Notes: generated from the letters alone by a model not told the origin. A DNA stretch of 64,000 nt from Comamonadaceae bacterium CG12_big_fil_rev_8_21_14_0_65_59_15 (GCA_002786915.1 PCUV01000104.1:8934-72933); one strand, 5' to 3'; numbered from the stretch's first letter, positions 673 through 64,000 are shown. Translations and numbers: made by a program.

Positions 673-2154
673 ATGCACTACCGTTCTACCCCGGCCCAGC
701 TCGTCAACACCCCCCTCAATTGGAACAACCGTTTTCACCAGTTGGGTGCGGGCTTTTACACCCCGCTGATGCCACAGCCGGTGCCCTCCCCCTACTGGGT
801 GGCTCACAGCCAGCCAGCCGCACAACTGCTGGGGCTGAACGACGACTGGGTGAAAAGCAACGCGCTGCTGCAAGCTTTCAGCGGCAACCAGATTTTGGCG
901 GGGTGCCAACCGCTGGCCAGCGTGTACAGCGGCCACCAGTTTGGCCAATGGGCCGGGCAATTGGGCGACGGCCGCGCCCTGTTGCTGGGCGAGGCCAACG
1001 GGCTTGAAGTGCAATTAAAGGGCTCTGGCCTGACGCCCTATTCACGCATGGGCGACGGGCGCGCCGTGCTGCGCAGCAGCATCCGGGAGTTTTTGTGCAG
1101 CGAAGCCATGCAAGCGCTGGGCATCCCCACCACACGCGCGCTGTGCGTCACGGGTTCCGACTTGCCGGTGCGCCGCGAAACCATGGAAACCGCTGCCGTG
1201 GTGACGCGCGTGGCGCCAAGTTTTATCCGCTTTGGTCACTTTGAACACTTTGCCGCACGCGGTCAGACCGACGCACTGCGCACCTTGGCCGACTATGTCA
1301 TCGAGCGCTATTACCCGGCCTGCCTTCACACCGAAGCACCCGGCGGCAACGCCTATGCCGCTTTGTTGCAACAAGTGGTCGAGCGCACGGCGCTGATGCT
1401 GGCGCACTGGCAGGCAGTGGGCTTTTGCCACGGGGTGATGAACACCGACAACATGAACATTTTGGGCCTGACACTCGACTACGGGCCGTTTGCCTTGATG
1501 GATGCATTCAACCCGGGGCACATCTGCAACCATACCGACCACGCCGGACGCTATGCGTTTGACGCGCAACCCGACATCGCGCACTGGAACCTGTACGCGC
1601 TGGCGCAGGCCCTGCTGCCGCTGGTTGAAAGCCAGGAGTTGGCATTGCAGGCGCTGGATACTTTCAAGCCCTTGTTTGCGAAGCACTACCACCGCCTGAT
1701 GTGTGCCAAGCTGGGGCTGCGTGAAGACTCGAGCGCAGACGCAGGCACATTGATTGAGGACCTGCTGGTGCTGCTGGCGCACGACCGCGTGGACTACCCC
1801 ATCTTCTGGCGCCGCTTGAGTCATGCACGCATGCAGAGCCACTACGAACCGGTGCGCGACCTGTTCATCGACCGGCTCGCCTGGGACGCCTGGCTGCTAC
1901 GCTATCAAGAGCTGATAGCACTTTACCAACAAGGGCCAGAGGCCGATTTGATGCTTAAAACCAACCCCAAGTACGTGCTGCGCAACTACCTGTGTGAAGA
2001 AGCCATTGAGGCCGCACGGCACAAGGATTTTTCGGCCGTGCAGCGCCTGTTGCAGGTCGTTACGCACCCGTTTGACGAGCAGCCGCAGGCGCAGGCGATG
2101 GCGGGTTTTCCGCCCGAATGGGCCAGCCGCATCGAGATCAGTTGCAGTTCATGA
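673..2154 (+). CDS. selO: Protein adenylyltransferase SelO (YdiU family)
   Basis: [47 protein letters not shown] motifs; C-terminal SCSS. Confidence 0.97.
1895..1960 (+). repeat. ~60-bp fixed-spacing dispersed motif, copy inside selO
   Basis: TGCTAC-N7-AGAGCT-N17-AAGGGCCAGAGGCCGATTT. Confidence 0.7.
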
Positions 2155-56295: not shown

Positions 56296-56307
56296 GCCAG
56301 CGCCACT

Positions 56308-56892
56308 TTACCGCACCGCGCGACGCCGCTCGGGTCGTGCGGCGCGGCCTTGCGGAATCACCTGATCAAGCGCGTTCAGCGCTTGCTGCACGGCAGCCCC
56401 GTCGCCCGCTTGCTGCGCTGCAACCAGTTGTGTGAGCCGGTTGCGTACTGCAGTCAACCGCTCGCGGTCCATTCGGCGCTGCTGCTCGGTCAGGTCGAGC
56501 AACTGGTGGCGGCGCTGCAAGGTTGAATCAACGCTGAAGTCAAGCGCGGCCGTTTTCGCCATCATTTGTCTGAAGGCTCTCAGAATCGACTGCACATAGC
56601 GGCGCCACAGCCAGTCACCCAGCAACAGCGCCACCGCGTTGACCAGCACAAAAATGCCCAGCAACCGCGCCGATTCATGCAGCAGTTGCGTGGCAATCGG
56701 TTGCGTGTCGGCCATGTGGATGCGGTACAGGTTGTCTTCCACCACCGCGCTCAGGCGCGCATACATCAGCCAGGCCAGGCCAGCAGCCAGCGCCACCTCC
56801 AGCACCACCAGGCCCACAAGCAACCATTTCTGGATCGATTCATCCACGTAATGAATGCGGCGCTGGTATCGGGGGGCAATTTTTTGTTCCAC
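56308..56892 (-). CDS. Two-TM hypothetical membrane protein with helical C-terminus
   Basis: ORF; QRRIHYVD..IQKWLL then two hydrophobic segments. Confidence 0.75.
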   Translation of the reverse strand: MEQKIAPRYQRRIHYVDESIQKWLLVGLVVLEVALAAGLAWLMYARLSAVVEDNLYRIHMADTQPIATQLLHESARLLGIFVLVNAVALLLGDWLWRRYVQSILRAFRQMMAKTAALDFSVDSTLQRRHQLLDLTEQQRRMDRERLTAVRNRLTQLVAAQQAGDGAAVQQALNALDQVIPQGRAARPERRRAVR

Positions 56893-56909
56893 GGCAAGCC
56901 TTTATGGGT

Positions 56910-57695
56910 TCAGAGTGAATGACATTGCAGGCACAACTTGGAGCCACTGTTGGTCACCACCAGTTGCCCATGCTGCTTTTTGTAGGGTTCGTGGCAAGAC
57001 ACACAACTGAGCTTGCCAGCGGGCAACCAGATCTCTTTGGGCAGCGACGACCGGGCTTTGAAGGATCCCCCCATGGCCGGGTAATTAATGCCAATCGGGT
57101 GGTTGGCACCGCCACTGCTGTGGCGCACCAAGCCTTGCGCCGTGACGCGCACGCCGGCCGCATCCCCCTCGGTGTTGTGGCACCCCAGGCACTGTAGCGA
57201 CAGCGCATCCACATTGCCCAGCCGGTTGATTTGCGCCATGTCCGCAATGGCGTGGCCCGACTGTTGCAGCGACACCCCGCCGTCTTTCATGCCACTGAAG
57301 AACGCCGCGTCGTGGCACGCCATGCACAGCGCCTTGCCACGACGCTTGTCGCGCATCAACCCCGGCGTAGAGCCGTGCACGGCGTGGCAGGTGCTGCACG
57401 TCATGTCGCCTTTCCAGTCCAGCGGCAAGTCAGCCGGGGGCTTGACCCTGGGCGCAAAGCCGCTGGGATGGCTCATGCGCTTCACATCTTTATGACAAAT
57501 GCCACACAACATCTCTTGCGATCCAATCAGCCGCCCAGCCTTGTCGGGCGTCACGTTTTGCCCGGCCAGGTGGCAATGGCTGCACTGTTTGTCCATCAGA
57601 TGCGCGCCGTCGCCAAAAGCCGCATACAGCCAGGCTACAGCGCCCAACAGCAACACGGCCAACGCAGCCAGCCCGGCTCTTTTAAAGTTGGCCAC
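56910..57695 (-). CDS. Heptaheme c-type cytochrome (doubled-CxxCH type)
   Basis: Seven CxxCH motifs: CSHCH, CGICH, CSTCH, CMACH, CLGCH, CVSCH, CLQCH; N-terminal signal/anchor. Confidence 0.93.
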   Translation of the reverse strand: MANFKRAGLAALAVLLLGAVAWLYAAFGDGAHLMDKQCSHCHLAGQNVTPDKAGRLIGSQEMLCGICHKDVKRMSHPSGFAPRVKPPADLPLDWKGDMTCSTCHAVHGSTPGLMRDKRRGKALCMACHDAAFFSGMKDGGVSLQQSGHAIADMAQINRLGNVDALSLQCLGCHNTEGDAAGVRVTAQGLVRHSSGGANHPIGINYPAMGGSFKARSSLPKEIWLPAGKLSCVSCHEPYKKQHGQLVVTNSGSKLCLQCHSL

Positions 57696-58209
57696 GATGC
57701 TCTACCTCCTGCAATCGGGCCAGCGCTTGTGGCAACGCCTCACCAGATGGCACCTTGCGGCAATCCGCCAGCGCGTCGCGCAGGGCACCGTAGTGCTCAC
57801 GCAGGTGCGCTTGCGCTGTCTCAAACTCAATCCACTCCTGCTGTAGTGCGTCGCCGACGCGAATCGACAACGGCCGGGCAAACGGGTCCTGCAAAATTGT
57901 TTTGAGGTTTTGCGCAAAGCGAAACAGCGGCCCGGCAATGCGGTGACTGCTGTAAAGCGAAATCAGCCACGTGGCCAGCGCCGCCACGGTCACCGACAGC
58001 AGACCAAACACCAGCATCACCGGCCCCAGTTTTTGTTGTGTCAAGCTGGTGCTCATCACAATAGCGCTGTAGTTGCTGCCTTGCGCGTCGGTAGCCCAGG
58101 TAATGGCGGCCAACAGTCCGGCAGCAGAGACCAACGCCACCAGCAGGGCAATTTTTCCCACCCATTTCACAGGCAACAGTTCAGACGGTTGGGGTTCAGA
58201 AGTGGACAT
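57682..58209 (-). CDS. Two-TM protein with HAMP-like segment
   Basis: Two TM segments, then SHRIAGPLFRF....IR.GD. Confidence 0.75.
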   Translation of the reverse strand: MSTSEPQPSELLPVKWVGKIALLVALVSAAGLLAAITWATDAQGSNYSAIVMSTSLTQQKLGPVMLVFGLLSVTVAALATWLISLYSSHRIAGPLFRFAQNLKTILQDPFARPLSIRVGDALQQEWIEFETAQAHLREHYGALRDALADCRKVPSGEALPQALARLQEVEHRGQL

Positions 58210-58217
58210 GGTGCGAC

Positions 58218-59309
58218 CTACTGGGAAAGAAGTGGAGCAACCGCGCGGCGCTGCACCGAACGGTAAACATCAAGCCGTACATACCATTGGTCCAGCACAT
58301 ACAGGCGCGCGTCGGTGTCAATCGCCAGGCCAGACGGCAGCATGTAAGTAGCCGCTGCCCCCACATCACCACGACTGCCAATCACGTAACGATAGTCGCC
58401 CCCGGGGCCAAACACCTGAATATTGCCAAACGAGGCATCGGTCACATACACCAGGCCTTGCGCGTCAGTGGCAATTTCCTTGGGCCGTTGAAACTGCCCC
58501 GGACGTTTGCCCGCACTGCCAAAGCTTTTGAGGTACTGCCCATGCGCATCAAAAATCTGGATGCGATAGTTTCCACTGTCCACCACATACAAGCGGCCGT
58601 CTTGCCCCACTGCGGCATCCAGCGGCCGATCAAATTCACCCGGGCCTTCACCGCCGTTGCCGATATCCATCAGGTGGCTGCCCGTGACCGCGTTGAACAC
58701 GCGCACCCGGTGCTGCCCTTCGGTCTGGTCAACGGCATAGACGCGCTGACGATCGGAATCCACCGCCACATTGATCAGCTTGCGCAGCCAGCGCGACCCG
58801 CCCAGCTTACGCAACTCTCGCCCCTGCGCGTCCAGCACCAGCACATAGCCCGACAAACCGTCGGCCACATACCAGTTGCCGCTACGGTCCACGCTGATGC
58901 CCACTGGCATGCGCTGCCCCCCCTGCGCCGACAAATCAACACTGAAAAATTGGCGTTGTGCAAAGTCAAACACGCTCAGCGACGAGTCCAGCGCGTTGAT
59001 CACCGCCACCCGCCCCTGGTGCGCAGCCAGCGCCAGCGGCCGACTCAAACCTTTACCGCCGCCACGTTTAGCACCCACCAGCAGGGTCAAAAAACCGCTG
59101 TCAGCGCCTTGATTGGCCAGGTCATTGGCCTCAAACACACTGCGCTCAAACTGGTAGGCCGGTGCCGCCGGTGGTGGCGGAAACACGCGCGGTGCCTCGG
59201 GCTCAGTGCTCTGTGGCCCGGTGGCACCACAGCCTGCCAGCACCAGCATACAAGCCAGCACCAGCGCCACCACCCCACGCCGCCCATTAAAGTTGTTTGT
59301 CATCACCAA
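58218..59309 (-). CDS. NHL-repeat beta-propeller lipoprotein
   Basis: Lipobox LAGC; repeats such as G.GPGEF.RP..., GRLYVVDSGN.RIQIFD, VYVTD. Confidence 0.9.
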   Translation of the reverse strand: MVMTNNFNGRRGVVALVLACMLVLAGCGATGPQSTEPEAPRVFPPPPAAPAYQFERSVFEANDLANQGADSGFLTLLVGAKRGGGKGLSRPLALAAHQGRVAVINALDSSLSVFDFAQRQFFSVDLSAQGGQRMPVGISVDRSGNWYVADGLSGYVLVLDAQGRELRKLGGSRWLRKLINVAVDSDRQRVYAVDQTEGQHRVRVFNAVTGSHLMDIGNGGEGPGEFDRPLDAAVGQDGRLYVVDSGNYRIQIFDAHGQYLKSFGSAGKRPGQFQRPKEIATDAQGLVYVTDASFGNIQVFGPGGDYRYVIGSRGDVGAAATYMLPSGLAIDTDARLYVLDQWYVRLDVYRSVQRRAVAPLLSQ

Positions 59310-60630
59310 TGCCCAGCTTTTTCATTTTTTCCCACAGGTTTTTGCGGCTGATGCCCAGCACGGCAGCGGTTTCGGCAATCTTGCCCTGCTTGCTTTTCAG
59401 AATCTGCTCAATGTACTGGCGCTCGTAGCTGCCCAGGTAGTCGTTGAGCGATGTTGCCTGTTGCTGCTCTTCTGGTTCAGGGTCCTGCACGCCACCAAAC
59501 AGCGCATTCGGCGTCAGCACCGCCTGGCTCGACAAAATGCAGGCGCGCTCCAACACACTCTTGAGCTCACGAATGTTGCCCGGCCAAGGGTGTTCCAGCA
59601 GCGCCTGTTCGGCCTGCGGGCTCAGCTCGCGCCGCGCGCGGCCGTGCTGCACTGCCTCGGCGTCGAGCATCAGGCCCGCCAGCCACAAAATGTCTTCCTT
59701 GCGCTCGCGCAGCGGTGGAATCTGCAGCTCCAGCACGTTGACACGGTAAAACAGGTCTTCGCGAAACTCGTTCGCTTCCACCATCTTCTTGAGGTTGCGG
59801 TTGGTGGCACACACCAGGTTGATGCTGATCGGAATCAGCTTTTCTGCGCCCACGCGCACCACCTTGCGCTCCTGGATCACGCGCAACAGCTTGACCTGCA
59901 TCGACAGCGGCATCTCGCCCACTTCGTCCAGAAACAGCGTGCCACCGTCGGCCTGTTCAAAATAGCCTTCCTTGTCGCGGATGGCGCCGGTGTAAGCGCC
60001 CTTGACGTAACCAAACATTTCGGCTTCCATCAGTGTCTCGGTGATGGCACCGCAGTTGACTGAAATAAACGGCTTCTTGTTGTCAGGGTCGCGCATACGA
60101 TGCAGCGCGCGCGCCACCACCTCTTTGCCCACGCCCGACTCACCGGTAATCAGCACCGTGATGTTGTCGGCCACCAGCCGTGGCAGCAGCGACTCGATAT
60201 GCCGCATCGGTTTGGAAATGCCCAGCACCGCCTTGCCGTCTGACGCGCCCTCGCCGATGGAGTTGCGGCTCAAAATATTGCGCACCATCTCGATCAGTAC
60301 GCGGATGTCAACCGGCTTGGTCAGATAGTCTTCAGCGCCCAGCTTGAGCAAGCTCACCGCACGGTCAATGGCACCATAGCCGGTCATAAAGATATACGGC
60401 GGCAATTCCACACCAGCGGCGCGCATCTCCTGAAACAGGCGCTCGCCGTCAATGTCTGGCAGCTTGATGTCGCTGATCACCACGCCAAACTTGTCTTTTG
60501 TCAGCGCAGCGCGCGCCGACTCGCCGGTCTTGAACCAGGTCCAATCCAAGCCCTCGATCTCAAAGCGGTCTGACACCGCCTCACCCATGATCTCGTCGTC
60601 TTCTATCAAACAAATGCGGTTCGAACTCAT
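59287..60630 (-). CDS. sigma54-dependent response regulator (NtrC family)
   Basis: Receiver IEDD/SD, GESGVGKE, EMFGYVKGAYTGA, FLDEVGE, WPGNIREL, Fis HTH. Confidence 0.95.
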   Translation of the reverse strand: MSSNRICLIEDDEIMGEAVSDRFEIEGLDWTWFKTGESARAALTKDKFGVVISDIKLPDIDGERLFQEMRAAGVELPPYIFMTGYGAIDRAVSLLKLGAEDYLTKPVDIRVLIEMVRNILSRNSIGEGASDGKAVLGISKPMRHIESLLPRLVADNITVLITGESGVGKEVVARALHRMRDPDNKKPFISVNCGAITETLMEAEMFGYVKGAYTGAIRDKEGYFEQADGGTLFLDEVGEMPLSMQVKLLRVIQERKVVRVGAEKLIPISINLVCATNRNLKKMVEANEFREDLFYRVNVLELQIPPLRERKEDILWLAGLMLDAEAVQHGRARRELSPQAEQALLEHPWPGNIRELKSVLERACILSSQAVLTPNALFGGVQDPEPEEQQQATSLNDYLGSYERQYIEQILKSKQGKIAETAAVLGISRKNLWEKMKKLGIGDDKQL

Positions 60631-62096
60631 GCTTGCTTTGTCTCTGCCATTGGCAATGTGACCGAGAACCTGACCCGGCCATTTTCTTGCTGCAAGTCTA
60701 TCTTGCCGCCCAGCTGCTGCACGATCTGGTACGTCACCCACAGCCCCAAACCATGGCCCTGGCCCGATTGGCTCAGCGGCGAAAACGGCTCAAACAAATG
60801 CGCGCGCTGCTCGGGCGTAAAGTCCTTGCCATCGTTTTCCACCCACAGCAACAACTGTTCGCCCTGATCTTGCACCCGGCACTCCACCACACCCCGGCAA
60901 TTGGCTGCCTGGATCGCGTTAAGAAGCAGGTTGATCAGCACCTGGCGCACCTGATTGGCCTGTAGCGGCACAGCGCGCGCCAGGTCGCTTGCCCACTGCA
61001 ATTGCAGCTCTTTCTTTTGCACCTGCGGGAACACCAGCGAACGCACATCTTCCACGTCTTGCGGCTCCAGATCACGGTTGCGCACACGCGCTTCCACCAG
61101 CAGCGCCCCTACCGTCTGCTTGATTTGCTTGAGCCCGCGCTGGATCAATGCCACCGTCTTGGCCGTGCGGGCATCCATGTTGCCATAAGCATTGAGCGTA
61201 TCAATGGCGGTGAGCATGCCGCCCAGCGGGTTGTTGATCTCATGCGCCACCCCGGCGGCCAGATGCCCGACGGCAGCCAGCCGCTCAGAGTGCACCACTT
61301 GTTTTTCTAACGCATCTTTGTCCTGTTGTTCGATCAACATTCGTTTGTAAGCCTGAAACAGCACCCCCAGTTCATCGTGGTAGGGATAGAGCTGGTCCAC
61401 CACCTCGGTGGCGGCGTTCAGGTCGTTTTCTCGCATGCGCTGACTGATCAGCACCAGCGGCCGTACCGTGCGGTGTGCCCAGTACCAGTTAACCGGCAGC
61501 AACACCGCCAGCGCAATCAAGCCCATGGTGGCACCGTGGATCAGAATCTGGAAGAAGCGTGGCCACAAAATCTCGTCTTTGGCGTGCACCACAATCAAGG
61601 TGCCCAGCGTAAAGCCGTCGTGCATGATGGGCGCAGCAATGTAAAAATTTTTCTCGTCCTGCATGTCGTAGGTCGAGTTGGTCAGATTTTTCGACTCGGT
61701 AATACGCTGCACAAACATGCTGTATTCGGGCGTCAACTGGTTCACCGTCGTGCCCATCGGGATCAACATCGGGTCGGTCGATGTGACCACCTTGAGCTCG
61801 TTGTCAAGCACCAGAATAAAGCGCGGCTTTTGAATATCTTTGGCGTGGGATGAAACCAGCGGCGCATTGATGATGCCAAAAGCGCGCCACAGGTCGTCTT
61901 CCATCAACGGATGAAACAAATCGTCAGCCAGCCGGTGCGCCAGGCTGGACGAGCCCGCCAGCAGGTTCTGGCGCAAGTCGTCATACGCCTTATAGACCAG
62001 CGACAGTGACACCAGCAGCGTCGTCACAACAATCAAAAAGCTGCCCCAGATCGGAATCTTGTAGCGCAGGCTCAGGTCAAAAAAGCGTTTCATCAT
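60627..62096 (-). CDS. HAMP-domain sensor histidine kinase
   Basis: Two TM, HDELG, AHEINNPL, NLLLNA, GHGLGL. Confidence 0.94.
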   Translation of the reverse strand: MMKRFFDLSLRYKIPIWGSFLIVVTTLLVSLSLVYKAYDDLRQNLLAGSSSLAHRLADDLFHPLMEDDLWRAFGIINAPLVSSHAKDIQKPRFILVLDNELKVVTSTDPMLIPMGTTVNQLTPEYSMFVQRITESKNLTNSTYDMQDEKNFYIAAPIMHDGFTLGTLIVVHAKDEILWPRFFQILIHGATMGLIALAVLLPVNWYWAHRTVRPLVLISQRMRENDLNAATEVVDQLYPYHDELGVLFQAYKRMLIEQQDKDALEKQVVHSERLAAVGHLAAGVAHEINNPLGGMLTAIDTLNAYGNMDARTAKTVALIQRGLKQIKQTVGALLVEARVRNRDLEPQDVEDVRSLVFPQVQKKELQLQWASDLARAVPLQANQVRQVLINLLLNAIQAANCRGVVECRVQDQGEQLLLWVENDGKDFTPEQRAHLFEPFSPLSQSGQGHGLGLWVTYQIVQQLGGKIDLQQENGRVRFSVTLPMAETKQA

Positions 62097-62974
62097 TCTT
62101 CACCCAAGGCGCGGCGCATCTGCACCTGGTGCTCGTAAACACGTTCATCGCCCGGCACAAACGCATCCACGCGCATACGCTTGAGCAGTTCTTTGCCTTT
62201 GGGGTCCTTGTCCATGCCCAACAACAAGCGCTGCACGTTACGCACATCCTGCGCGTCAGCGCTGCGGTTGGCAAGAAACGCCGGTGCACCGTAGGCTTGC
62301 GAGCGCGCCACTACGCGCACGGCTGCGCTCAGGCCTGGCTGCTCTTTGAGCATGCTGTCCCAGATTGCACTGTCAACCGCCCCCGCATGTGCCAGGCCCA
62401 GCGCCACTGCCTTGATCACGTCCTTGTGCGAGCGCGTAAAAAACGTGCGCTTGAAGAATCGCTCGGGGTTTTCACCGGCACTGAGCAATTGGTAGCGTAT
62501 GTCAAGATAACTGCCGTTGGACTGGCGATCGGCAAACACAAACACGGCACCGCGCAACTGCGCCAGTGAGGTCGTGTGCACGTTGTGCGCGGACACGATC
62601 AGGTACGACGACGCATACGGCTGCCCCTGGTACAGCGGTGTCGCCAGCAGTTGCGCGTGATCCTTGAACTGGCTGTCGGGGTGGTCTGTGACCCAGGCAA
62701 AGTCCATTTTGGCACGCACCATCTCGGCGGTGGTGTTGTTGAAGCGCCCATGCACGACGGTCTCGACGGAATGGTTCAGCCGTTTCTCCAGATAGACCCT
62801 GAATTCGTCAATCAGGAAATAGTCCAGCCCCAGTGTCTTGTGTGGAATGCCAATGCGGATCGGCAGCAGATGCGAGTCGGCGTGCGACACCACGGGTAGC
62901 CCGGCCAGGCAGGCTAAACCAAGTGCACCACAAAAATACCGTCGCGTTGAAATCAAACCAAGCCTCTTTGTCAA
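62093..62974 (-). CDS. PhnD-like periplasmic binding protein associated with the two-component system
   Basis: Tat-like STRRYFCGALG, PLYQGQPY..SYLIV, SHKDVIKAVA.GLA.AGAVD; start codon uncertain. Confidence 0.82.
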   Translation of the reverse strand: MTKRLGLISTRRYFCGALGLACLAGLPVVSHADSHLLPIRIGIPHKTLGLDYFLIDEFRVYLEKRLNHSVETVVHGRFNNTTAEMVRAKMDFAWVTDHPDSQFKDHAQLLATPLYQGQPYASSYLIVSAHNVHTTSLAQLRGAVFVFADRQSNGSYLDIRYQLLSAGENPERFFKRTFFTRSHKDVIKAVALGLAHAGAVDSAIWDSMLKEQPGLSAAVRVVARSQAYGAPAFLANRSADAQDVRNVQRLLLGMDKDPKGKELLKRMRVDAFVPGDERVYEHQVQMRRALGEE

Positions 62975-63067
62975 CTCATGAACCTTGCAAAAAAATTCAA
63001 GGGCCCAACACCGACCGCCATTTTTCCACCAACGCCCACAGCGCCGGGCGCGAGGTGCAACACAAAT

Positions 63068-63081
63068 ATGACATAAATCAA
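63068..63081. promoter_or_regulatory. FNR-like box
   Basis: ATGACATAAATCAA, one perfect half of TTGAT-N4-ATCAA. Confidence 0.35.
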
Positions 63082-63137
63082 AGAAAGCAAAATTAGCCCC
63101 CTCCACCCAACCCATGCTCCCTAAAATCGTCAACGCG

Positions 63138-63153
63138 TGGCAACGGGCATGCG
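63138..63153 (+). promoter_or_regulatory. Possible sigma54 promoter for the cytochrome c gene
   Basis: TGGCAACGGGCATGCG, GG-N10-GC. Confidence 0.45.
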
Positions 63154-63225
63154 TTACGGCGCAGTGGCAAGCAATTTCCACAACCGGTCAAGCACCATTT
63201 GTTCAACTTTTTAACGGGATTTTTT

Positions 63226-63549
63226 ATGAAGAAACTGAGCCTTTCCCTGATCGCCATCGCCGCCCTGGCAGTAGGCGCCTCCACCGCCGCTTTTGCTGAC
63301 GCCGAAGGCCTGCTCAAAACCAGCAAGTGCACCAAGTGCCACGCCGCTGACAAAGACAAATCAGGCCCGTCTTGGAAAAAAGTAGCTGAAAAATACAAGG
63401 GCAAGGCCGACGCCGAAGCCAAGCTGTTCACGCACGTGACCACCGGCCCCAAGGTCAAGATTGACGGCGAAGAAGAAACCCACGCCAAGATCAAGAGCAC
63501 CGACGAAGCCGCTATCAAAGAAGTGATTGGCTTCATCCTGAAGCACTAA
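63226..63549 (+). CDS. Monoheme class I cytochrome c, MtoD-like (probable bis-His)
   Basis: Signal peptide, CTKCH, GPSWKKVAEKYKGKADAEAKL, EETH; no Met in the mature sequence. Confidence 0.88.
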   Translation: MKKLSLSLIAIAALAVGASTAAFADAEGLLKTSKCTKCHAADKDKSGPSWKKVAEKYKGKADAEAKLFTHVTTGPKVKIDGEEETHAKIKSTDEAAIKEVIGFILKH

Positions 63550-63579
63550 GCGCGTCCTGGCTTCACCTTTTGAATGTAG

Positions 63580-63608
63580 CCCGCCAGCCCAAAGCTGGCG
63601 GGTTTTTT
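63580..63608 (+). terminator. Rho-independent terminator
   Basis: CCCGCCAGC-ccaaa-GCTGGCGGG-TTTTTT. Confidence 0.9.
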
Positions 63609-64000
63609 ATTGGGCGCTACGCACCACGTGATCAAGCCCATGCACACTGAGCAATTGCTGCACCACACTGGCTTGCAACACATCTTTGCGACGATTGAGC
63701 GGGTCGCGATCGGGCTGGTCACTGAGCGCGCTTTTGATACGCTGAAAACTCTGGGGCAAGGGCACATGCATGGTGGCCATCGTGCCGTTGGTCGCCACCA
63801 CCACCTGTGAAAAGCGCCCACCATCCAGCAACGCCTGCCCACTGGGCACCTGCACAGCCCAAAAATCATCTTCAAATTCAGACACCCGCAGGGGGTGTGG
63901 GTCGCTACCGGACCGGCTGTTGGCCATGCGGCGAATCACGTCAACCTCAAACCCGTGCGCGTTGACTGCGGTGTATTTTTGGTCGTCGCGCAACGCAAAT
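63607..64000 (-). CDS. C-terminal part of a probable GSU2403-family nucleotidyltransferase-fold protein
   Basis: AVNAHGFEVDVIRR, P.P..F..IK..LS..PDRDP..RRKD..QA; start outside window; family call from recall. Confidence 0.6.
   Translation of the reverse strand, partial: FALRDDQKYTAVNAHGFEVDVIRRMANSRSGSDPHPLRVSEFEDDFWAVQVPSGQALLDGGRFSQVVVATNGTMATMHVPLPQSFQRIKSALSDQPDRDPLNRRKDVLQASVVQQLLSVHGLDHVVRSAQ

Follow-up and report, generated by a model that had tools for sequence, protein, structure and literature searches.

A seven-haem OmcE-superfamily cytochrome encoded between two small inner-membrane proteins in a Comamonadaceae bacterium, with relatives in or beside OmcE/Uet-type clusters

Here we describe a gene cluster of Comamonadaceae bacterium CG12_big_fil_rev_8_21_14_0_65_59_15, carried on a 64,000-nucleotide stretch of DNA (GCA_002786915.1 PCUV01000104.1:8934-72933; hereafter the window). 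In this cluster, a c-type cytochrome with seven CxxCH haem-binding motifs (the heptahaem) is encoded between two small proteins, TM2a and TM2b, each with two predicted transmembrane (TM) helices. Sequence comparison assigns the heptahaem to the OmcE superfamily, as a distinct family of OmcE-like length with three more haems and not as an OmcE orthologue. The three genes, which we call the triad, recur in many Proteobacteria, often close to genes of OmcE/Uet-type clusters. We tentatively read the triad as encoding a periplasmic haem relay docked on inner-membrane proteins, as part of OmcE/Uet-type extracellular electron transfer, although we hold this reading at somewhat less than even confidence.

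The cluster is a run of seven minus-strand genes (56308-62956), read from the open reading frame (ORF) listing together with Pfam and NCBIfam scans of the window. In the order of transcription they encode a PhnD-like protein, a histidine kinase, a sigma54-dependent response regulator, an NHL-repeat lipoprotein, TM2a, the heptahaem and TM2b. The genes are coupled as in an operon, with overlaps of 14, 17, 4 and 4 nt and gaps of 17 and 8 nt, and identical gene calls were made independently on several metagenome contigs with the same sequence. The preliminary description of this DNA had reported the run and a divergent gene for an MtoD-like cytochrome, and all eight genes lie where it placed them:

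56308..56892, minus strand: TM2b, 194 aa, two predicted TM helices (ORF listing, metagenome gene calls)
56910..57695, minus strand: heptahaem c-type cytochrome, 261 aa, exactly seven CxxCH motifs (ORF listing, Pfam, homologue alignment)
57682..58209, minus strand: TM2a, 175 aa, two predicted TM helices (ORF listing, conservation, AlphaFold2 (AF2) model)
58218..59303, minus strand: NHL-repeat six-bladed beta-propeller lipoprotein, lipobox LAGC (Pfam NHL 68 bits; NHL in the PDB, E 1e-47)
59287..60630, minus strand: NtrC-type sigma54-dependent response regulator, 447 aa (Pfam REC, AAA+, HTH_8)
60627..62096, minus strand: membrane histidine kinase, two TM helices with a periplasmic domain of ~150 aa between them, then HisKA and HATPase_c
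62093..62956, minus strand: PhnD-like periplasmic substrate-binding protein, 287 aa, first gene of the operon (Pfam Phosphonate-bd, E 1e-47)
63226..63549, plus strand: MtoD-type class I monohaem cytochrome c, 107 aa, divergent (phmmer against 4xxl)

The CxxCH motifs of the heptahaem lie at C38, C64, C100, C124, C169, C231 and C255, and all seven are conserved in an alignment of 54 homologues (44-91% identity). Seven additional histidines had been put forward as possible distal ligands. These are likewise kept across the 54 homologues: H32, H76, H107, H192, H199 and H242 are invariant, and H148 is present in at least 90%. With seven CxxCH motifs and seven conserved His, every haem can be six-coordinate (bis-His). 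Such ligation of all haems would fit electron transfer and argues against a catalytic haem with open coordination.

In domain searches, the heptahaem scored 68.4 bits with the Pfam model PF09699 (Paired_CXXCH_1; cut-off 20.6), with units at residues 99-130 and ~230-260, and 49.9 bits with TIGR01905 (cut-off 25.2). It falls outside the MtrA/DmsE decahaem family TIGR03508, for which it reached 44.6 bits against a threshold of 192.2, the similarity being confined to the paired-CxxCH units. Relatives of the heptahaem detectable in the protein collection number 518. One homologue, in a Kiloniellaceae metagenome-assembled genome (MAG; locus L068, 9884-11107), is extended to 11 CxxCH motifs and 408 aa and has no TM2a/TM2b neighbours.

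A phmmer search of the PDB with the heptahaem matched OmcE (7tfs) at E 8.3e-5 over residues 88-260 (173 residues), with OcwA at a similar level. When the search was made with a profile of the heptahaem family, the decahaem chain 6r2q_A came first (6.6e-8) and OmcE second (5e-6). We take 6r2q_A, by its sequence a decahaem cytochrome of 333 aa, to be MtrA of the MtrCAB complex; the PDB copy used here titles it 'Cystathionine beta-synthase', which looks like a labelling error in the table. Because the matches are fragmented and cover the paired-CxxCH unit only, plain HMMER similarity to OmcE and MtrA is largely that of a generic doubled-CxxCH motif.

A profile of the OmcE family was therefore of more use when aligned with that of the heptahaem family. 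It was built from 13 true OmcE-like proteins of related loci and matches 7tfs at E 5e-53 and the D. soudanensis OmcE 9yuq at 5e-43. Comparison of the two families with hhalign gave a probability of 98.5-98.6% and E-values of 3e-15 to 5e-16. The robust part of the alignment covers the 65 C-terminal residues (197-261), where NHPIG falls on NDHPI and the match continues through GK.SCVSCH to S.LC..CH. The OmcE-like spacing of haems at the C-terminus, which was recognised from the outset, is thus real.

Before residue 197, internal repeats make the register ambiguous, and two mappings conflict. Local hhalign places C100 and C169 onto OmcE haems 1 and 2. With phmmer and global hhalign, C64 and C124 take these positions, and C38, C100 and C169 become insertions. 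The second register is colinear with OmcE from the signal peptide and N-terminal His to the C-terminus, and a full-length colinear alignment of the two proteins is plausible.

The OmcE proteins of G. sulfurreducens (7tfs) and D. soudanensis (9yuq), which are tetrahaem filament subunits, have in common with the heptahaem the N(D)HPI distal-His motif and the C-terminal paired CxxCH. Colinearity in the global profile alignment extends to the signal peptide, the N-terminal His, CxxCHD and the overall length. Further points of likeness are the apparent bis-His ligation of all haems and an adjacent gene for an NHL/beta-propeller lipoprotein. The two differ in haem number (four against seven), and MtrA ranks above OmcE in the profile search. 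True OmcE-like neighbours in related loci carry four CxxCH motifs and four distal His, in line with an OmcE family of ~200-230 aa with four of each, whereas the heptahaem has seven and seven. Its earlier description as OmcE-like therefore stands at the level of the superfamily and does not extend to orthology.

To see where the triad occurs, species-representative genomes were scanned, and at least 188 stretches were found to encode a heptahaem relative. The best 80 of these make up the loci considered here, of which 40 are well flanked (at least 8 kb on both sides); neighbours were counted within 10 kb. TM2a adjoins the heptahaem gene upstream in 69 of the 80 loci and TM2b downstream in 66. 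The loci span Beta-, Gamma- and Alphaproteobacteria and Magnetococcales, with Burkholderiales, Gallionellaceae, Rhodocyclaceae, Thiohalophilus/Thiohalomonas, Sedimenticola, Magnetococcales, Kiloniellaceae and others as carriers. Cultured carriers include Noviherbaspirillum sp. ST 5-3, N. denitrificans TSA40 and Thalassotalea sp. G2M2-11.

De novo clustering of flanking ORFs revealed that the next commonest specific neighbours are OmcE-like tetra- and pentahaems, NHL propellers, trihaem c7-type cytochromes and an undecahaem. A protein of ~700-750 aa without a Pfam match, which is the large barrel of published clusters, is also frequent. Among the 40 well-flanked loci, an OmcE-like gene was found in 16, an NHL gene in 17 and the barrel gene in 9. 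For such rare genes the association with OmcE-like genes is strong, though not obligatory. Proximity to GGDEF genes (12 of the 40 loci) was also considered and judged not above chance for genes of such abundance.

In some loci the association takes the form of a complete cluster. In L085, one strand carries in succession an OmcE-like gene, NHL, barrel, NHL, an 11-haem cytochrome, a further cytochrome, TM2a, the heptahaem and TM2b. A Uet-type make-up is found beside the triad in L011, L064, L068, L072, L077 and L085, and all of these except L011 have full UetJ/UetC/UetA/NHL sets. A place in OmcE/Uet-type clusters is thereby borne out for the relatives, where synteny reveals true OmcE homologues, NHL propellers, the large barrel and the undecahaem. 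The heptahaem is single-copy in most loci (L077 has a weakly similar second copy), whereas OmcE-like genes reach up to six paralogues. In L044, one copy of the triad lies amid six OmcE-like tetra/pentahaem paralogues.

Two published types of cluster agree in make-up with L085 and can be compared with the locus in the window. The minimal OmcE cluster of Desulfuromonadia consists of OmcE with a large beta-barrel, a pair of multihaem cytochromes and a pair of beta-propeller lipoproteins. Instead of these propellers, barrel and further multihaems, the window has one NHL lipoprotein only; no barrel is encoded at the locus, and the conserved neighbours of the cytochrome are two small inner-membrane proteins. 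The uetABCDEFGHIJ cluster was described in Ca. Tenderia electrophaga and Gallionellaceae (bioRxiv 10.1101/2022.05.06.490989; PMC10734462). Related loci hold, beside the triad, a tetrahaem (OmcE-like), a barrel, trihaems, two NHL proteins and an undecahaem, as the Uet cluster does. The window differs in that it lacks equivalents of UetA, UetC and UetJ and has the NHL component alone, with one gene, and the named Uet genes do not include the triad. OmcE homologues in Pseudomonadota and Uet clusters have already been published; our literature search, incomplete in coverage, found no description of the module of heptahaem and two-TM proteins or of its attachment to OmcE/Uet clusters.

The two small proteins have well-conserved features of their own. 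TM2b carries an N-terminal RR..YVD...Q motif, an invariant Glu32 in TM1 and an invariant Asn85 in TM2, as well as cytoplasmic juxtamembrane helices, a short periplasmic loop with a conserved NxYxxH and a C-terminal cytoplasmic helical tail. A profile search with TM2b returned 249 clusters, almost all of them standalone proteins of ~180-200 aa. TM2a is a TM hairpin with a short periplasmic loop, a conserved juxtamembrane helix (LYSS.RIAGPL.RF) and cytoplasmic helices at its end. Its AF2 model (pLDDT 72) is a helical hairpin plus helices, for which Foldseek returned generic helical bundles only and no informative structural match. Neither TM2a nor TM2b belongs to a Pfam or NCBIfam family.

The AGPL motif gives TM2a a visual resemblance to HAMP, but no Pfam HAMP match was obtained at E <= 1 in 29 TM2a and 17 TM2b proteins, and this assignment was dropped. 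The idea that the two are paralogues was also rejected (hhalign probability 1.5%). In P0295, a 413-aa protein of the representative protein library, a TM2a-like N-terminal half is naturally fused to a TM2b-like C-terminal half. The existence of this fusion suggests that TM2a and TM2b act together as one unit. No conserved membrane His pairs are present in either protein, and it is for this reason unlikely that they carry b-haems or move electrons across the membrane.

A docked periplasmic relay could work as follows; the localisation, the physical complex, the partners and direction of electron flow and the regulatory target are those we infer. The heptahaem would be exported by its Sec signal peptide and would hold seven bis-His haems, on an OmcE framework with three inserted haems. 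The TM2a/TM2b pair would keep it at the periplasmic face of the inner membrane, where it would relay electrons between OmcE/Uet-type outer conduits and periplasmic or inner-membrane carriers. These conduits would consist of the OmcE/UetA-like tetrahaem, the undecahaem and the large barrel, with NHL propeller lipoproteins as scaffolds. At the present locus, the NHL lipoprotein would be the scaffold and the MtoD-type cytochrome the soluble carrier partner. The binding protein and the kinase would sense a periplasmic signal, and the regulator would then switch on sigma54-dependent transcription. Since the universal partners of the heptahaem are two inner-membrane proteins and not a barrel, a periplasmic role associated with the inner membrane seems more probable than that of an extracellular filament.

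Several results weigh against a relay to outer conduits. The heptahaem is the sole multihaem cytochrome in the 64-kb window, and hidden Markov models (HMMs) of the cluster-type barrel and of OmcE found no other match anywhere in it; the reported lack of an MtrB-type porin is upheld by the barrel HMM. Neither the annotated ~54 kb nor the 9 kb that follow the window revealed an outer-membrane partner, and those 9 kb encode no further multihaem cytochrome either. Across the loci surveyed, OmcE-like genes within 10 kb are lacking in 24 of the 40 well-flanked ones, and the triad of Sulfuritalea stands alone, which makes the link to outer conduits frequent and not obligatory. In TM2a and TM2b, no domain for a cofactor, for quinone or for signalling can be recognised, and the docking role given to them is therefore conjecture. 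The haem-free AF2 model of the heptahaem, made from the 54-sequence alignment, has a pLDDT of 55 and gave no Foldseek match in the PDB at E <= 0.001. A scan of the window for the sigma54 promoter consensus yielded 70 matches against 76 expected by chance, none of them well placed. Finally, in a search for RNA evidence, the sequence was found in DNA metagenome runs only.

The absence of the outer arm implies that the relay would either serve conduits encoded elsewhere or work only within the periplasm. It also limits the 'omcE/omcS-like architecture' originally attributed to the locus. The NHL and sigma54 parallels with Geobacter stand, but the architecture is incomplete here, because the OmcE-type tetrahaem and the barrel are absent from the window and from the 9 kb beyond.

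A comparison with L001, the closest relative with a genome contig (79% identity), reveals what lies in place of such genes. On its divergent side, L001 has an MtoD-like, an NHL and two OmcE-like genes. Similarity between the window and L001 ends after the MtoD-like gene, just before a terminator, and the position of the NHL and the two OmcE-like genes is occupied by a toxin-antitoxin/insertion sequence (IS) island. Two features mark this boundary:

63578..63604, plus strand: strong intrinsic terminator following the MtoD-like gene, with an 11-bp stem (8 of the pairs GC), then a T-run
63607..64000, minus strand: 3' part of an NTP_transf_8 gene, with which the toxin-antitoxin/IS island begins

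Past the MtoD-like gene, the island comprises NTP_transf_8, a GNAT toxin/TacA antitoxin pair, a Pol-beta nucleotidyltransferase and a DDE transposase, followed by CusF-DsbB-DsbA (L081 10382-17114). A related island with MazE/PemK and TacA/GNAT is found at the same place in a 91%-identical Rhodoferax MAG (L089). Remnants of OmcE-like genes or of a second NHL gene were sought in the genome of the window, and none were found.

In this lineage without the outer arm, the operon is under purifying selection: dN/dS is 0.06-0.11 for the heptahaem and 0.09-0.27 for the other operon genes (TM2b 0.18). The seven-gene operon recurs in L001, L089 and L091 (where the first gene is cut by the contig end), with differing downstream contexts. 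Its recurrence in different contexts, together with purifying selection, indicates that the operon is a functional unit and not debris. The window sequence was found in groundwater and aquifer metagenomes, and its closest named relatives are Rhodoferax and Comamonadaceae MAGs.

As for the remainder of the window, housekeeping genes occupy it from ~9.7 kb onwards, and further toxin-antitoxin modules lie among them (a BrnA-like antitoxin at ~26.6 kb; Phd/YefM and a split PIN gene at 44.8-45.5 kb). The stop codon of TM2b and that of a plus-strand gene for ETF-ubiquinone oxidoreductase are 12 nt apart (56296-56307), and no terminator-like hairpin was found there.

Among the other readings we weighed, the one that fares best is redox sensing, although we regard it as unlikely. 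The heptahaem would report how oxidised or reduced the periplasm or an electron-transfer chain is, and TM2a and TM2b would signal through their cytoplasmic helices to the co-encoded kinase and sigma54 regulator or, elsewhere, to other regulators. The strong conservation of the cytoplasmic juxtamembrane helices and tails in both small proteins speaks for this, as does their lack of conserved His pairs or other membrane cofactor sites. In the present lineage, the triad also shares an operon with a two-component system. Within 10 kb, a histidine kinase is found in 9 and a sigma54 regulator in 11 of the 40 well-flanked loci, but NtrC-type genes, like those for GGDEF proteins, are common, which makes proximity weak evidence, and among specific neighbours electron-transfer genes are the strongest. 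Neither HAMP nor any other signalling domain was detected at E <= 1, Foldseek was without a match, and none of the 249 TM2b clusters is a fusion with an output domain. Moreover, seven bis-His haems far exceed what is known from haem sensors.

It is rather improbable, in our estimate, that the heptahaem is itself a polymerising nanowire subunit, with three extra, partly exposed haems per subunit and an NHL protein that aids assembly. Colinearity with OmcE over the full length would favour such a role, with H32 aligned to the His of the OmcE-family KHD, a few residues into the mature protein; the alignment before residue 197 is, however, of low confidence. The balance of His to haem (14/7, as against 8/4 in OmcE) and the adjacent NHL propeller point in the same direction. 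Petersen et al. (2025, bioRxiv 10.1101/2025.10.22.684050) suggested that OmcE-like proteins of OmcE length with extra CxxCH motifs, such as those with five, may form a new nanowire family. In the global alignment, C169 lies between OmcE haem 2 and NDHP, as in five-haem proteins of the related loci. The heptahaem differs from such five-CxxCH proteins by the addition of C38 and C100, and an association with TM2a/TM2b is not described for them. Against a filament stand the lack of a barrel or other export route at the locus and the inner-membrane nature of the conserved partners. In most loci the heptahaem gene is present once while OmcE-like genes multiply, and full clusters have a separate OmcE-like tetrahaem as the obvious subunit.

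The N-terminus of the heptahaem bears on whether the protein is anchored. Its uncharged run is 22 residues long at the median, and 11 residues separate it from the first CxxCH. AF2 gives residues 3-26 as a confident helix, and close relatives have a WLYA[AG]FG motif in common. When more distant members are included, ordinary L-[YH]-A signal-peptidase sites close this segment, with the conserved His 6-10 residues on. Homologues without TM2 partners have classical AxA signals, and alphaproteobacterial loci, in which TM2 partners are generally not detectable, encode classical signal peptides. In view of the family-wide L-[YH]-A sites and the classical signals of homologues without TM2 proteins, the candidate membrane anchor was downgraded. 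The signal is probably cleaved, and a soluble periplasmic protein is more likely than an anchored one.

An inner-membrane-anchored quinol dehydrogenase of the CymA/NapC/NrfH kind, whose first haem, ~11 residues after an uncleaved anchor, would exchange electrons with the quinone pool, could draw on this uncharged run, the confident helix and the motif kept in close relatives, yet it is very improbable given the signal-peptidase sites just described, the apparent bis-His state of all haems and the purely local NrfH match (29.6 bits against a cut-off of 134, C-terminus only), which leaves the heptahaem outside the NapC/NirT/NrfH family.

Turning to the upstream genes of the operon, the NHL gene immediately precedes the triad in L001-L006, which are the closest relatives, and likewise in L058, L089 and L091. 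The response regulator has Response_reg (7e-22), Sigma54_activat (1e-65) and HTH_8 (2.5e-10) domains and the activator loop GAYTGA, by which it is classed as an NtrC-type enhancer-binding regulator. By analogy, the PhnD-like protein is probably a co-sensor of the histidine kinase, so that a periplasmic ligand would be sensed. TorT/TorS is an example of such a binding-protein-dependent kinase.

The parallel drawn earlier with omcS, as a neighbour of a sigma54 two-component system, was correct: omcS (GSU2504) is beside GSU2506/GSU2507 (PMC10599522, PMC11077965). The region GSU2504-2507 resembles the present locus by gene type, as a multihaem cytochrome gene beside a sensor kinase and a sigma54-dependent response regulator. 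The cytochrome families differ, the sensor of the kinase there is Cache/HAMP, and descriptions of that region mention no PhnD-like partner.

Upstream of the MtoD-like gene, there is a weak GG-N10-GC site at 63138 (plus strand). In L001, a better sigma54-type element, TGGCAC-GCACA-ATGCT (1978-1993, minus strand), lies ~45 nt upstream of an OmcE-like gene (1032-1919, minus strand). This element hints that the system of PhnD-like protein, kinase and sigma54 regulator may drive OmcE-like genes.

The intergenic region between the PhnD-like and MtoD-like genes contains conserved blocks common to the window (63060-63165) and L001 (4480-4585). The first block reads AAATATGAC[AC]TA[AC]ATCAAA, and the second reads AATCGTCAACGCG...GCGTTAC and includes an AACGC/GCGTT inverted repeat; both are present in the window and in L001. 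They are possible operator or enhancer sites.

The divergent cytochrome was rightly called MtoD-like. With phmmer, it matches MtoD of Sideroxydans lithotrophicus ES-1 (4xxl) over the full length at E 1.8e-24 (residues 8-105 on 15-115) and has one CxxCH. Its mature protein contains no Met, and His/His ligation is expected. The gene differs from that of MtoD in not being next to mtoAB/cymA.

Among the questions stated to be open are the way in which nanowires and Uet conduits are linked to the inner membrane, their point of electron entry and their assembly (PMC12307469; bioRxiv 10.1101/2025.10.22.684050). As a long shot, the seven-haem OmcE-type block may polymerise, or cap or prime OmcE-like filaments, on an inner-membrane platform of TM2a and TM2b. 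If true, cytochrome wires would thereby gain a membrane anchor and a place for electrons to enter, or there would be a wire across the whole periplasm.

In the window, we see what would be the inner part of an OmcE/Uet-type system, intact, selected and regulated, without the outer part. Elsewhere, the triad recurs in or beside the OmcE/Uet clusters of iron- and sulfur-cycling and magnetotactic Proteobacteria. This makes it a concrete and testable candidate for the missing inner-membrane link of cytochrome-wire systems, and cultured carriers exist.

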